Shown one piece after another: positions 29,779-42,006 of a stretch of 64,000 nt of DNA. Under the pieces are notes generated by a model that was not told the DNA's origin, searched no databases, and saw only the letters and a list, made by a program, of their open reading frames with translations. Positions within the stretch are counted from its first letter, which is position 1, and every line of letters starts with the position of its first letter. This DNA is from Promethearchaeota archaeon Loki_b31. Its GTDB lineage: Archaea; Asgardarchaeota; Lokiarchaeia; Sigyniarchaeales; SOKP01. The stretch covers positions 32,001 to 96,000 of the forward strand of contig NJBI01000005.1 of assembly GCA_005222975.1 (NCBI GenBank), given 5' to 3'. The position numbers were made by a program, and so were the translations under genes.

Positions 29779-30174
29779 CTAAGCCTCTTTCAATTTTCCT
29801 ATTAATTCCAAAGCATCTAATACCTTTCCGCTTTTAATAACTTCAACCTTTGCTTTCATCCCTTTATATGTTGGAGTGCCACACCCTTGTGAATCGGGAT
29901 TCACAAGTTGATTAGCCCATGGACCCATCGGAACGAATAATATCCCGGGATGAGGTCCCTCTTCTGAAATTGTAGAATAGACTATAACCTCTCCAAAATC
30001 AGTTGTAATTTTAACAGGAGTTCCAACAAGGCAATCTAGTTTTTTAAAATCGTTTCTATCGAAAGCACAGATACCCGCAGCTCGGACATTTTCCTTTGTT
30101 ACTTTTCCACCTTCAAGAGCTACTCCTTGGTTAATCGTTCGACCAGTTAATAAAATTAAATTTTCTAAACTCAT
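29779..30174 (-). CDS. fwdD: Formylmethanofuran dehydrogenase subunit D
   Basis: LTGRTINQG, PMGPWAN and GTPTYKG motifs. Confidence 0.9.
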   Translation of the reverse strand: MSLENLILLTGRTINQGVALEGGKVTKENVRAAGICAFDRNDFKKLDCLVGTPVKITTDFGEVIVYSTISEEGPHPGILFVPMGPWANQLVNPDSQGCGTPTYKGMKAKVEVIKSGKVLDALELIGKLKEA

Positions 30175-30176
30175 TT

Positions 30177-30887
30177 TTAAGAGCCCTCCTTTTTACTCCA
30201 TCTTAATGTTTTCAATCTTTCTAACAATGGTGGCCAAAACAATTTGCTAAATTCACCAGAAGTTTTCACTTCGGTAATTTCAAGCTGCAACGCTCCCGTT
30301 GGACAAGCATTATCGCACGCTCCGCAAGCCACGCAGGCATCTTGGTCGACAACTTCTACATTTTTAGACATTTCCCAACCGTGCTCAGGTCTTTTAGCTA
30401 TTTTAATAGTTCCTGAGGGGCACACTTCAGCGCACGATCCACATCCCTTAGCACATTCTTCGTCAATAACATTCACAGTTGCTTTAGCGTATTGTTTTAC
30501 TATTCTATCGTTATTTAACTTTTTCGCTTCAAATTCAATTTTAGGAACTACTTTTTGAGCAACAATAGGGATATCTACTAAATTAATTATTTCTCCGTCT
30601 TTTTTTAGCGTCAATGCGCCAAATGGGCACATAATTACGCAAGTGCCACAAAAAACACATTTATGAGGGTCGTATATTTCTGATACTATATCTTCGGTTG
30701 TTGGAAATCGACGTGATGCTCCAACAGGTCCTCTGGAAATAGCTTCTTTGGGACATACTCGGGCGCAAGTTCCACAACCTACGCATTTGGATCTATTTAA
30801 AATAAGTTCTAAACTTTCTGTTAAAAATTGAACTTTTACATGTTCCTCTTCTTGAGTTAAAGTTCTAGATATTTTAGGAAACGACAT
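30177..30887 (-). CDS. Polyferredoxin with four [4Fe-4S] motifs, FwdF-like
   Basis: Four CxxCxxCxxxCP-type motifs, within the fwd operon. Confidence 0.8.
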   Translation of the reverse strand: MSFPKISRTLTQEEEHVKVQFLTESLELILNRSKCVGCGTCARVCPKEAISRGPVGASRRFPTTEDIVSEIYDPHKCVFCGTCVIMCPFGALTLKKDGEIINLVDIPIVAQKVVPKIEFEAKKLNNDRIVKQYAKATVNVIDEECAKGCGSCAEVCPSGTIKIAKRPEHGWEMSKNVEVVDQDACVACGACDNACPTGALQLEITEVKTSGEFSKLFWPPLLERLKTLRWSKKEGS

Positions 30888-30890
30888 TTT

Positions 30891-31148
30891 TTAAACTCCC
30901 TCCATAACTTCAATTCTGATTGCAACTTGAGGACACATTTTTACGCATACTCCACAGCCGTCGCAATTAATTTTTCTTTCTTCATTGTAAATAGGTACCG
31001 CAATTCCGTTTTTAACTAGTATAACTGCATTTTCCTTGTTCAAATAACTTTGTTTCCTCAACTGGTTAAAATTAATTGGACAACTTACAACGCACGCATT
31101 GCACCCAGTGCAAGTGTTTCTATTTATTTTTAATTCGTAAATTTGCAT
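30891..31148 (-). CDS. 2x[4Fe-4S] ferredoxin (FwdG/H-like)
   Basis: CTGCNACVVSCP and CDGCGVCVKMCP. Confidence 0.85.
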   Translation of the reverse strand: MQIYELKINRNTCTGCNACVVSCPINFNQLRKQSYLNKENAVILVKNGIAVPIYNEERKINCDGCGVCVKMCPQVAIRIEVMEGV

Positions 31149-31152
31149 AGTT

Positions 31153-31575
31153 TTATGCCTCCTTTTTCATAGGATTAGGTCCTAATTCTTTTAATTCATG
31201 GACAAATTCTTCGACAATTTCGGTCAGCTCTGCACCTTCAGAAGCCGAAACGAACGTGTACTTAACTCGTTTAGGGTTAATACCGAATTGTTTTAGATAT
31301 AGATGAAGCATTGGAATTTTTCTCATTGTTTTTAAGTTTCCCTCAACATAATGACAGTCGCCTACATGACAATGAGACACTAATACGCCATCTGCCCCAT
31401 TTCTTAGTGCGTCCAAGATAAAATGTGGTTCTACTCTTCCTCCGCACATTACGCGCATAATCCTTAGATTTGCGGGTCGCTGCATGCGAGATGTTCCAGC
31501 TTGGTCAGCGCCAGCGTATGTACACCAGTTACAACATATACCTAAAATGAATGGATTAAATTCGCTTTCGGTCAT
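31153..31575 (-). CDS. mvhD: MvhD [2Fe-2S] Hdr-adaptor subunit
   Basis: CNWCTYAGADQAG, RVMCGGRV, GDCHY and SASEG motifs. Confidence 0.92.
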   Translation of the reverse strand: MTESEFNPFILGICCNWCTYAGADQAGTSRMQRPANLRIMRVMCGGRVEPHFILDALRNGADGVLVSHCHVGDCHYVEGNLKTMRKIPMLHLYLKQFGINPKRVKYTFVSASEGAELTEIVEEFVHELKELGPNPMKKEA

Positions 31576-37641: not shown

Positions 37642-39000
37642 TTATTCTAAATCGGTTCGACCTATTGCTCTAAATGGCAAAGCGCTATTAAACTCTTCGT
37701 AATCGAAAAGTCTTCTTCCATCTACAAGGTTCGGAGTTTTCATTTGCTTCTTGAAATCGTCTGGCATAAGTTTTTTAAACTCGTCCCACTCCGTAATTAT
37801 TATTGCACACTCAGAATTTTTTAAAGCTTCTTCAATTGACTCGGCATATTTTATTTTATCTCCCATTTCCATTTCAGCATTTTTATTTGCTTTAGGATCA
37901 TATCCGATGATATCAGTTATACCTCTTTTTCTTAATTCATTAACAACCCTAATACTAGCAGCTTCCCGCATATCGTCCGTACCTGGCTTGAAAGCAAGAC
38001 CTAATAAGGCTACTTTTTTACCAGCTAATTTTCCTGCCAATTGTTCAGCCATATCAACGATGTGGATTGCTTGATCGTCGTTAATGCCTAAAACTGCTTC
38101 CAATAATCTTGAAGTATATCCTTTTGATTTAGACCACGCTTTTATTGCGTTCACATCTTTATGAAAACAAGAACCTCCAAAACCCACTCCAGCATTTAAA
38201 AATCGAGAATTTAATCTGTAATCGAGCCCTACTCCTTTCATAACTTGGGCTATATCTACATTTGGTACTAACTCAGCAAAATTCGCGAATTCATTAGCAT
38301 AGCTGATTTTAGTAGATAAAAGGCAGTTGTTTCCGTATTTAACTAATTCAGCGCTTTCTAGATTTATTCTTAATATAGGGCAATTTTGTAAGTGGTCACC
38401 ATAGAAATATTCGTAAAACTCTTGAAGCATGGCGCCACTCTTCTTGTCAATCTCACCTATTACGATCCTATCTGGGCGAAGCGTATCTTCAATCGAACGA
38501 CCCTCCGCTAAAAATTCGGGTTGCATGCATAAGCCAAAATCTTTTCCTGGAACCTTTCCAGATACTTCAGTAATTATTTTTCCTACCAGATTCCTCGTAG
38601 TACCGGGAACTACGGTAGATCTTACAACAACTAAATGATATTTATCCTTTTGCTTTAGAGCCTCTCCTATTTCCCTAGCTGTACTCTCAATATAGCCTAA
38701 GTCTATGCTTTTATCTTCTCGCATGGGAGTACCTTGAGTAATCATAGAAATATCCGTTTCGAGTACCGCTTTTACGGGATTCAGCAAGCACTGTAATAGT
38801 TCTGGTTTATTAGCTTTAATATCGTCCATCATTTCTTGTAAATCCGCTTCGTAAAATGGTGCCTTTCCATCATTAATCATTTTAGCCTTCTTTTCATTAT
38901 GAGTGGATGCTAAGACTTGTATGTCTTTCCCAGCGAAACATGCAGCACTACATAAACCGATAAATCCAGTCCCTAAAATCGAAACGCTATACTTATACAT
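37642..39000 (-). CDS. UDP-glucose/GDP-mannose dehydrogenase family protein
   Basis: GTGFIG, RSTVVPGT, PEFLAEG, GFGGSCF and FKPGTDDMRE motifs. Confidence 0.92.
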   Translation of the reverse strand: MYKYSVSILGTGFIGLCSAACFAGKDIQVLASTHNEKKAKMINDGKAPFYEADLQEMMDDIKANKPELLQCLLNPVKAVLETDISMITQGTPMREDKSIDLGYIESTAREIGEALKQKDKYHLVVVRSTVVPGTTRNLVGKIITEVSGKVPGKDFGLCMQPEFLAEGRSIEDTLRPDRIVIGEIDKKSGAMLQEFYEYFYGDHLQNCPILRINLESAELVKYGNNCLLSTKISYANEFANFAELVPNVDIAQVMKGVGLDYRLNSRFLNAGVGFGGSCFHKDVNAIKAWSKSKGYTSRLLEAVLGINDDQAIHIVDMAEQLAGKLAGKKVALLGLAFKPGTDDMREAASIRVVNELRKRGITDIIGYDPKANKNAEMEMGDKIKYAESIEEALKNSECAIIITEWDEFKKLMPDDFKKQMKTPNLVDGRRLFDYEEFNSALPFRAIGRTDLE

Positions 39001-39209: not shown

Positions 39210-40496
39210 ATGAACGATTTGAGAAAAAAATTGAAAATTCCAGACGACGCATTAAAAGTAATAAACGATTTCTTATTGGACGAAAAAAATCCACTGATAA
39301 ACGATCTTTTAGATATAGTAGATAAATATGGCGGAATAGAGGAGATTAATAGAAAGGCAGAAGAAGCCAGTAAATTAGAAAACTTACTCGAAAAATTAAA
39401 AAAGAAAAAGCCAGAATATGTTAAGGATATTGAGTGGTTGATTTCTCAACGCGGCAATAATTCTTTTATTAGCATAGTAGATTATAGAAAAAAGATTTTA
39501 GGCGATAAAGCGTCTGAAATGACTTTCGACGAAGACTTTGCTATAACATTAGAACTTTCTGCGTGTCAATACTTCCCTTTCTTGATGGATATGGTAAGAG
39601 ACGCCGTTAAAAATCAAAAAATAGTACCTGGTAGAATCATTCGCGTAAGATACATGAAAGAACAGGAAGAAGACGGGGATTTACTAGCTATGGCAGCGGC
39701 AATGCAAATTATTGGTTCGACTTGGGTCGAAACTCTTGACACAAAGGGAACTGCCCCTGGTCCAGATGGTATGCCTGTAAATGTACATCTTGGTGGTCCC
39801 GAAACTATTACTGGCTATTTTGGAGGTGTTGGACAACCAAACAATTTTGCGTTAAAATGGGTTGATGAATATCTTTATTATTATACTAACTACGGCATTA
39901 AACAGGTTCTTAATGTGAATCCAGGCACTGTTTTATTAGGTTATTTTATCCATAAACTTGGTATCAACAACGAATTTAAAATTAGTGTATACATGGGTAA
40001 TGATAACCCGTATTCTTGTCTTTGGACATTATTGACCGCTAAATTGTTTGCACGGGAGGATGGAACTAGTCCCTTGATTGGCTTTAACCTTGCCAATTCA
40101 GTTAATAATGAAACTATTGAAGTAACTGCCTATATTAGAAAAGAATTTGGGTTTGAAGATGTAGTACGAATAGAACACCATATAACTGAAACATGGAAAA
40201 GTATTGTAAGGCAGCCTTATGATCGTCGAGACGAATTAATGGAATTAGCTAAGAAAGTGAAGAATGTAAGTGCGAAACATGAGGGAGCAAATGTTGATGT
40301 TGACGAAAAACGGGATCATCCTACAGATATCCTTGAATATTTCATGACTAAGGAGGATATTGAAGAAGCGGGAATATGGGAAGCATTACGCATAAACCTT
40401 CTCGACCGATACGAAGCTATTAATACTACAGCTGAAGCTCTAACCAAAAAGGGACTAACATTTATAGCTGCTAAGAATTTACATCATCGGGAATAA
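39210..40496 (+). CDS. Enzyme-like hypothetical protein (428 aa)
   Basis: Long ORF with Gly/His-rich motif-like segments (VETLDTKGT, NVHLGGPETITGYFGG, RIEHH, SAKHEG); 19 bp upstream of the dapA-fae fusion. Confidence 0.75.
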   Translation: MNDLRKKLKIPDDALKVINDFLLDEKNPLINDLLDIVDKYGGIEEINRKAEEASKLENLLEKLKKKKPEYVKDIEWLISQRGNNSFISIVDYRKKILGDKASEMTFDEDFAITLELSACQYFPFLMDMVRDAVKNQKIVPGRIIRVRYMKEQEEDGDLLAMAAAMQIIGSTWVETLDTKGTAPGPDGMPVNVHLGGPETITGYFGGVGQPNNFALKWVDEYLYYYTNYGIKQVLNVNPGTVLLGYFIHKLGINNEFKISVYMGNDNPYSCLWTLLTAKLFAREDGTSPLIGFNLANSVNNETIEVTAYIRKEFGFEDVVRIEHHITETWKSIVRQPYDRRDELMELAKKVKNVSAKHEGANVDVDEKRDHPTDILEYFMTKEDIEEAGIWEALRINLLDRYEAINTTAEALTKKGLTFIAAKNLHHRE

Positions 40497-40515
40497 TAAA
40501 TAGAGGTTAATTTAA

Positions 40516-42006
40516 ATGGGAAAATTTGATTTTAGACCAACAGGAGTTATGCCAGCATTAGTAACTCCTTTTAATAAAGAAGACGAATCAATTAACGAAG
40601 AAAACCTTAGAAATTTAGTAAACCATCTTATAGATCAAGGAGTTACGGGACTTGTTCCCGTAGGGACGACTGGAGAGTTCGTTAACATGACTTTTGAAGA
40701 ACGCTTGAGAGTCATCGAAATAGTCGTCGACGAGACGAATGGTAGGGTTCCTGTAATTGCTGGAACTGGAGAAACGGGAACAAATTTGGTAATCGATGCC
40801 ACTAAAGCTGCAACGGACATCGGTGCAGATGCGGCTATAATTGTAACGCCTTATTATCTCAAACCTAAGGCAAAAGGGTTGTACGACCATTATTTTACGA
40901 TAGCAGAAAAAACCGATATACCCTTGGTGTTGTATAATATTCCCGTCTGTACGGGGGTAGAACTGCCTTGGACTGTTGTAGAAGATCTAGTTGATATAGA
41001 TAATTTCGTCGCGATAAAGGATTCTAGCGGTGACTACAAATATTTCTCTGCGTTATTAGAGAAAGTGAGCGATAAAATCTCCGTTCTAATAGGGTGGGAC
41101 GAAAATGTATTGGGTGCTTTAGCTGGTGGCGCTGCGGGTTGTATACTTGGTTCTGCTAATGTTATTCCTAAGGTATGGCTCGAACTTTACGACCATGTAA
41201 AAAATAATCGCTTAATTGAAGCACAAACTCTACAAAAGAAAGTGCAAAAGCTAGCTCGAATGTTAATCAATTCTGGAGCTCTAGGCGCCAAAGAGTGTTT
41301 GAATTTGATGGGCATTCCAGTAGGCACAACAAGACGCCCGATCATTTTAGGAGACGCTCTTTCCTACGAACTCCAAGACGAATTTAGAGTTGAACTTGAA
41401 AAGTTAGGATATATCGAAAAGAAAGAAATTAAGTTCGAGATTGATGATAAAGAACTAACGAGTCGTTTTTACGCAGTGGGTGTTACACCTGACAAAATTT
41501 CTGATTTCAGCTTAAAAGTCGGAGAATCGCTTGTTGGCAGTAGAGCGGAGTTAGCACATATTGATCTTTTAATAGGAAATAAAAAGGGCCCCGTAGGTGA
41601 CGCTTACGCTCGTGCTTTAACTCATCCAGCTAAAGGGCGTGAAGGGTTACAGGTAATTCTCGAACCAAACATGCAAGTCAAACCTGCGACTATTATGATC
41701 CCTACAGTTAAAATCACTTCGCTTCGCCACGCAAGTTTGACTTATGGACCTGCTCAAGCAGCAGTAGCAAAAGCGGTAATGAAATGCGTAGAGGATGGCA
41801 TTCTTCCTAAAGAAGCAGCAGAGGATATATTAATAATTGTAAATGTATTTGTACATCCTAGCGCTAGCGCTCGAAAACGGGTATTTATTAATAACTATAA
41901 AGCTACAAGAAACGCCATTCGAAAGGCAATGGAAGGGTTACCAACGGTAGATGACGCTATTCAAAACGCTGAAAATGCACGTCATCCCTTCAGGAACGAT
42001 CCGTAA
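40516..42006 (+). CDS. DHDPS/NAL-family aldolase fused to formaldehyde-activating enzyme (Fae)
   Basis: N-part: GTTGE, PYY, LYNIP, IKDSSGD. C-part from about 41515: GESLVG..ELAHIDLLIG, KPAT, GPAQAAVAKAV, FVHP, NYKAT..AI.KAM. Confidence 0.9.
   Translation: MGKFDFRPTGVMPALVTPFNKEDESINEENLRNLVNHLIDQGVTGLVPVGTTGEFVNMTFEERLRVIEIVVDETNGRVPVIAGTGETGTNLVIDATKAATDIGADAAIIVTPYYLKPKAKGLYDHYFTIAEKTDIPLVLYNIPVCTGVELPWTVVEDLVDIDNFVAIKDSSGDYKYFSALLEKVSDKISVLIGWDENVLGALAGGAAGCILGSANVIPKVWLELYDHVKNNRLIEAQTLQKKVQKLARMLINSGALGAKECLNLMGIPVGTTRRPIILGDALSYELQDEFRVELEKLGYIEKKEIKFEIDDKELTSRFYAVGVTPDKISDFSLKVGESLVGSRAELAHIDLLIGNKKGPVGDAYARALTHPAKGREGLQVILEPNMQVKPATIMIPTVKITSLRHASLTYGPAQAAVAKAVMKCVEDGILPKEAAEDILIIVNVFVHPSASARKRVFINNYKATRNAIRKAMEGLPTVDDAIQNAENARHPFRNDP

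Follow-up and report, generated by a model that had tools for sequence, protein, structure and literature searches.

A conserved, mislabelled aldolase–Fae fusion of Asgard archaea and its proposed role in 4-hydroxy-2-oxobutanoate chemistry

The window analysed here, a 64,000-nucleotide stretch of the genome of Promethearchaeota archaeon Loki_b31, contains a gene in which a DHDPS-like class I aldolase is joined to a Fae domain (Table 1). This fusion is conserved and is mislabelled in databases. From its residues and gene context we propose, at a probability of about 0.55, that the protein interconverts HOB (4-hydroxy-2-oxobutanoate) with pyruvate and methylene-H4MPT, in either direction; we lean roughly 60:40 towards cleavage, which would feed the H4MPT C1 branch. 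Judged by comparative genomics, the fusion would vary the aldolase-plus-Fae design, probably on a new substrate, and would form part of an undescribed pathway. A literature search whose coverage excluded most subscription journals returned no description of a DapA–Fae fusion or of a natural HOB pathway. The main clue to the role of the fusion is the gene next to it, P428, on which the first-pass annotation was silent.

Table 1. Features of the fusion locus, in window coordinates
Feature	Position	Strand	Remarks
P428, orphan 428-aa TIM-barrel protein	39210..40496	+	19 bp upstream of the fusion
Shine-Dalgarno-like AGAGGT	40502..40507	+	inside the 19-nt P428–fusion gap, 8 nt before the fusion ATG
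DHDPS-like class I aldolase::Fae fusion gene	40516..42006	+	single ORF, 496 aa
Aldolase barrel, aa 8–277	40537..41346	+	Pfam DHDPS, E 3e-74
Inter-domain linker, aa 304–331	41425..41508	+	AlphaFold low confidence, pLDDT < 50
Fae domain, aa 335–492	41518..41991	+	Pfam Fae, E 7e-58, 158/159 profile positions

The reading of aldolase and Fae as a single gene, made in the first-pass annotation, is borne out by the open reading frame, the Pfam matches to DHDPS and Fae, the homologs, and an AlphaFold model in which a low-confidence linker connects two folded domains. In fold comparison, the barrel superimposes on DHDPS structures with an rmsd of ~1.7 Å. Both domains are present in 120 of 120 homologs among the matches listed (84–98% identity), and 79 fusion loci were found in genomes; the fusion is thus not an assembly artefact. 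Named homologs belong to Promethearchaeota (Lokiarchaeia) and carry the database label 4-hydroxy-tetrahydrodipicolinate synthase. The Schiff-base Lys, Tyr, and Fae His motifs recognized earlier lie at K168 (IKDS), Y140 (LYNIP), and H348 (AHID), respectively. Against the Fae equivalog TIGR03126 the protein scores 192 bits (cut-off 118) over profile positions 2–160 of 160, and its Fae domain possesses H348 (codon 41557–41559), an EPN motif (residues 383–385), and an RHPF tail. H348 aligns with the His of the AHID motif in M. extorquens Fae (1y5y), which is the catalytic His22. The score against the Fae-Hps model NF009833 is 159 bits (cut-off 274), with the Fae part alone matching and no C-terminal Hps domain. 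The G+C content is 41% for the fusion gene, 36% for the P428 gene, and 33% for the window; a promoter and terminator scan gave results at chance level.

The barrel displays the hallmarks of the DHDPS/NAL class I aldolase superfamily, comprising a TIM barrel, a GxxGE loop, a Schiff-base Lys, and a catalytic Tyr; HBPA is another DHDPS-family aldolase. Retained residues are T51/T52, Y114, Y140 (codon 40933–40935), and K168 (codon 41017–41019), and in an alignment of 233 close homologs G50-TTGE, T51, T52, Y140, K168, and H348 are invariant. Residues 193–196 form a G-x-D-E motif, with E196 invariant, which we take to resemble the polyol-binding motifs of NAL-type enzymes. In the column of DapA Arg138, the residue that binds aspartate semialdehyde (DapA residue roles from PMC3188589), the fusion carries C145 (codon 40948–40950), where 3pud and 2yxg have YNVPGRTG and YNVPSRTA. 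The fusion family has C, V, L, T, or Y in this column, and Arg occurs in 0 of 287 aligned fusion sequences. The Arg-to-Cys change, taken earlier as a pointer to another substrate, identifies no substrate by itself.

The fusion was found in 125 of 251 Asgard genomes in a distribution survey, with presence called at a best E ≤ 1e-60, a threshold at which a few fragments may be mis-scored. Genome counts here include related genomes and are not phylogenetically independent, so that p-values computed from them overstate independence, and the group names of coded families are our own assignments from named records. Mch, a marker of the H4MPT pathway, is present in 121 of these 125 genomes and in the host genome (G000), in agreement with the tie to H4MPT claimed earlier. 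The more specific link to Fwd is a conjecture: fwd genes are absent from the conserved neighbours within 6 kb. Elsewhere in the window, fwdD-like, polyferredoxin, and mvhD genes occupy 29779–31575 (−), ~9 kb from the fusion, and a UDP-glucose dehydrogenase gene at 37642–39000 (−) typically lies divergent to this locus, an arrangement confined to Lokiarchaeia, with no functional link seen. A separate Fae-Hps-type gene is encoded on contig C96 of G000, so the fusion is unneeded for the Fae-Hps role.

P428 adjoins the fusion in 73 of the 75 assessable loci and lies ~1.5 kb away in the remaining two; within the window's family, both are present in 37 cases and neither in 15, with three discordant. 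No match to P428 was found among Pfam, NCBIfam, or PDB sequences, fold searches returned generic TIM barrels without a specific match (best Z 12), its top Foldseek rows are weak class II aldolase hits (E ~1e-3, rmsd ~9), and its Atlas features were uninformative. In fusion-bearing lineages that lack P428, a 315-residue barrel often labelled as a U32 peptidase, P315, is encoded near or directly upstream of the fusion, and one or other of the two barrels is found in 119 of the 125 fusion genomes. P428 and P315 are mutually exclusive (140 versus 29 genomes, overlap 0), and within one Asgard family they swap at the same syntenic slot (locus L209:8559–9869 versus L260:6065–6997 and L261:5969–6925). 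Their alignment is weak (hhalign E 0.001, probability 20%). As for the U32 label, P315 falls below the Pfam cut-off (E 0.077) and its Atlas clusters are 17–23% U32, while P428 has no Pfam match to U32 and a TM of 0.44 to U32 models. The P428 family is a highly conserved orphan of at least 8,000 clusters without annotation, for which the fusion gives a testable handle.

Other genomic contexts of P428 provide a second line of evidence. Among 40 P428 genomes without Mch, homoserine dehydrogenase (HSDH) is present in 33 and the fusion in two; in the loci read from genomes without H4MPT, P428 shares an operon with an aminotransferase, HSDH, and AOR, a module that may link HOB, homoserine, ASA, and aspartate. 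Aspartate kinase is missing from four genomes with this operon. Bacillota and other anaerobic bacteria instead pair P428 with a PanB paralog that forms its own clade (SH-aLRT 99) and adjoins FolD, Fhs, or Acs (acetyl-CoA-synthase) genes in some loci; a second panB match is present in the genomes concerned, and this paralog may be the folate version of the C1 transfer proposed for the fusion. Acting on pyruvate, PanB-type chemistry would yield HOB, which is also the keto acid that corresponds to homoserine; the three modules would thus converge at HOB. A proteobacterial P428 operon encodes an Ldh_2 reductase, an iron ADH, and, in Polaromonas, an aldehyde dehydrogenase, which may offer a parallel route; it also encodes a canonical DapA. 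The non-fusion neighbours of P428 are largely fermentative genes, including those for POR, acyl-CoA ligase, AOR, and amino-acid dehydrogenase. In a single 4.36-Mb contig without Mch (G213; L197:6778–9104), a divergent stand-alone DHDPS-like gene precedes P428 in place of the fusion.

P315 likewise occurs away from the fusion. A fragment of it lies directly upstream of dmpF/dmpG on a plasmid of Mycobacterium sp. SMC-4 (L266:7986–10407), and in Streptomyces and Thermomicrobium the gene is found downstream of galactonate-dehydratase-like genes. Together, these contexts suggest that the P428/P315 barrel family may act on 4-hydroxy-2-oxo acids generally. The Mycobacterium locus also encodes an APC permease, an aminobutyraldehyde dehydrogenase, and a P450, and is possibly a cyclic-amine degradation cluster.

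We propose that the fusion would act as an H4MPT-dependent pyruvate hydroxymethyltransferase of two modules. The barrel would hold HOB on K168 through a Schiff base and cleave it to pyruvate and formaldehyde, the formaldehyde would pass, perhaps by channelling, to the tethered Fae domain, and Fae would condense it with H4MPT to yield methylene-H4MPT, a capture that would pull the uphill cleavage and limit free formaldehyde; the overall reaction would be reversible. P428 may in turn generate HOB through elimination and water addition at C3–C4 of a 4-substituted 2-oxobutanoate derived from amino-acid breakdown, with the methionine keto acid as a candidate substrate. Methionine gamma-lyase-like genes lent this candidate no support, as they show no anti-correlation with P428 and co-occur with it in many genomes; the distribution of the PF01837 homocysteine enzyme follows lineage.

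HOB had been named as a possible substrate in the first-pass annotation, and this assignment, though still one by inference, gains independent support from the other contexts of P428. It rests on the invariance of the pyruvate Schiff-base residues among the close homologs together with the absence of Arg138; on the association of the fusion with H4MPT, the near-constant presence of P428 or P315, and the alternative HSDH and PanB modules; and on the P315 fragment that precedes dmpF/dmpG, genes for an aldolase and an aldehyde-capturing partner. Previous work has proposed that Fae-Hps captures the formaldehyde released by Hps (PMC5241800), and aldol additions of 2-oxo acids to formaldehyde by PanB, and of pyruvate to small aldehydes by HBPA, have been described in vitro (PMC10127515). 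Several observations count against this reading: the G-x-D-E motif, since HOB has no obvious need of polyol-type binding; the lack of a specific fold match for P428; the proximity of P315 to galactonate-dehydratase-like genes, which indicates that the barrel family is not HOB-specific; the canonical DapA of the proteobacterial operon, which is without an assigned place there; and the missing anti-correlation between P428 and methionine gamma-lyase-like genes. More tentatively, and with somewhat less than even confidence, we suggest a natural C4/C1 pathway, undescribed and widespread in Asgard archaea, Bathyarchaeia, and anaerobic bacteria, in which P428 would make or use HOB and the modules would swap according to C1 carrier: aldolase–Fae for H4MPT, the PanB paralog for THF, and aminotransferase, HSDH, and AOR where there is no carrier. 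The fusion would then be a natural pterin-coupled HOB aldolase, catalyzing the step that is central to the engineered homoserine cycle.

The same HOB chemistry could also run for biosynthesis, with pyruvate and methylene-H4MPT giving HOB, then homoserine, and then threonine via a ThrC-like paralog, in replacement of the aspartate route; this direction takes the minor share of the probability assigned above and is in itself rather unlikely. HSDH is present in 19 of the 125 fusion genomes compared with 77 of 126 without the fusion (12 of 39 compared with 14 of 16 in the window's family), a ThrC-like gene of ~500 residues stands beside P428 in six of the nine Thorarchaeia-family genomes checked, and G000 retains a ThrC-like paralog, all as this direction would predict. 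However, the operon threonine synthase of the window's family tracks HSDH (24 with both, 27 with neither, four discordant) and is missing from 25 of the 27 genomes that carry the fusion and lack HSDH, including G000. Moreover, G000 has neither a ThrB above cut-off nor a trans-sulfuration enzyme, and thus no clear biosynthetic sink for homoserine. We favour cleavage on account of these losses and of the fermentative neighbours of P428. Simple replacement of HSDH to feed a normal thr operon was considered and rejected: the anti-correlation is real, yet the operon thrC is also lost. Within the Thorarchaeia family, ThrC-like and ECF S-component genes lie beside P428 (L201:5718–9246); on contig C38 of G000 (L225:5813–7694), a ThrC-like gene is paired with a similar-looking 209-aa membrane protein, away from P428; and a thr operon in another member of the Lokiarchaeia (G207; L230:5797–6405) has ThrH (homoserine phosphotransferase) and not ThrB.

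Other assignments would keep some of this chemistry and change the substrate or the catalyst. The fusion might give formaldehyde to, or take it from, another 2-oxo acid, for example 3-methyl-HOB, a 2-oxo-tetronate (hydroxypyruvate plus formaldehyde), or ketopantoate. This reading is unlikely but draws on the native role of the PanB partner as a 3,3-dimethyl enzyme, on the conserved D195/E196, which could hold an extra hydroxyl, and on the occurrence of P315 in sugar-acid clusters; against it, the HSDH of the alternative module points to an unbranched C4 skeleton, and a housekeeping panB in G000 and most fusion genomes covers ketopantoate synthesis. The last observation also led us to reject the fusion as a ketopantoate synthase replacing PanB. 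It is improbable, too, that P428 or P315 is itself the formaldehyde-releasing aldolase, with the Fae domain capturing the product and the DHDPS-like barrel catalyzing another step or a different aldol cleavage. The class II aldolase hits of P428, the aminotransferase–HSDH–AOR operon, which encodes no other aldolase, and one tandem fusion pair kept despite loss of the Schiff-base Lys from both copies are in keeping with this arrangement. Yet the PanB paralog needs no second C–C enzyme and is nevertheless paired with P428, K168, Y140, and T52 are invariant in the close homologs, and the genome of the Lys-less pair (GCA_003560875.1, a 1.0-Mb bin) has no P428 match, which fits a relic.

Finally, going by the database label, the fusion would be a genuine DapA to which Fae is attached incidentally. 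This label arises because the protein narrowly passes the NCBIfam dapA cut-off (TIGR00674, 233 versus 206 bits); in addition, its best PDB matches are DHDPS and it is the sole DHDPS-family gene found in G000. We nonetheless consider a DapA function very unlikely. Besides the family-wide absence of Arg138, fusions form one clade (SH-aLRT 97) apart from canonical DapA in an aldolase tree built by a quick method only, in which two further rows within the clade look like truncated fusions. A relative (G147) carries both the fusion and a separate canonical dapA (YNVPGRT, 325 bits) beside dapB, no lysC (aspartate kinase), asd, or dapB was found in the single-contig fusion genome G023, and G000 (92% completeness) has no dapB or asd match. 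The same evidence supports the earlier view that the enzyme is not DapA. Scores for related NCBIfam families were all below cut-off: NanA (156/382 and 181/281), the HpaI-like TIGR02313 (190/397), KdgD (106/374), and archaeal KDG aldolase (107/390).

Among the known systems closest to the fusion, Fae-Hps (NF009833) of methanogens and other archaea is likewise a formaldehyde-handling aldolase fused to Fae; here, however, the aldolase is a DHDPS-family Schiff-base enzyme, whereas Hps is metal-dependent, and Fae is C-terminal. With DapA (TIGR00674) it has in common the fold (TM 0.95 by target), the GxxGE loop, equivalents of Thr44/Tyr107/Tyr133/Lys161, and ~40% identity, but it lacks Arg138, is joined to Fae, belongs to its own clade, and has no dapB or asd context. 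The net reaction proposed for the fusion is of the same type as that of PanB, and by analogy SHMT, in which CH2OH passes from a 2-oxo acid to a pterin or back, and a PanB paralog takes the fusion's place beside P428 in folate-using bacteria; fold and mechanism are unrelated, PanB employing a metal enolate and THF and the fusion a Schiff base, a separate Fae site, and H4MPT. DmpG/DmpF (4-hydroxy-2-oxovalerate aldolase and acylating acetaldehyde dehydrogenase), for which channelling is known, similarly combines an aldolase with an aldehyde-capturing partner, but uses a class II aldolase, acetaldehyde and CoA, and two proteins. In the engineered homoserine cycle, the promiscuous E. coli RhmA condenses pyruvate and formaldehyde to HOB, which is then transaminated to homoserine; unlike the fusion, this cycle uses free formaldehyde and no Fae. 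Its HOB aldolase step has been presented as synthetic, and HOB has been called a non-native metabolite (PMC8879981).

With half of the sampled Asgard genomes carrying the fusion, a C1 route may be missed in abundant sediment archaea. If HOB is handled, the fusion would give nature's own dedicated enzyme for a step that synthetic methylotrophy has until now taken from promiscuous aldolases, and would link amino-acid carbon to the H4MPT branch in non-methanogens. Lysine synthesis may in turn be over-called, since fusion homologs carry the DapA label in databases.

The fusion occurs as a tandem pair in Thorarchaeia and in several further lineages, among them a cluster that contains an Anaerolineae member. 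Type A retains the EPN motif but has neither the His nor the tail, whereas type B retains both of these and lacks EPN, and the two are sister groups in the quick tree; the single gene of the window combines both motif sets. The active site of Fae lies between subunits. The pattern fits a duplication after which the Fae site was divided between the copies, and the complementary half-motifs (His plus RHPF tail versus EPN), which recur at L081:8528–11479, L085, L086, L206, L207, and L215, suggest that the paralogs may form an obligate heteromer. The Lys-less pair (L083/L084:8544–11449), in which both barrels have also lost the GTTGE loop, lies beside a RibD_C gene and may be a Fae-only relic.
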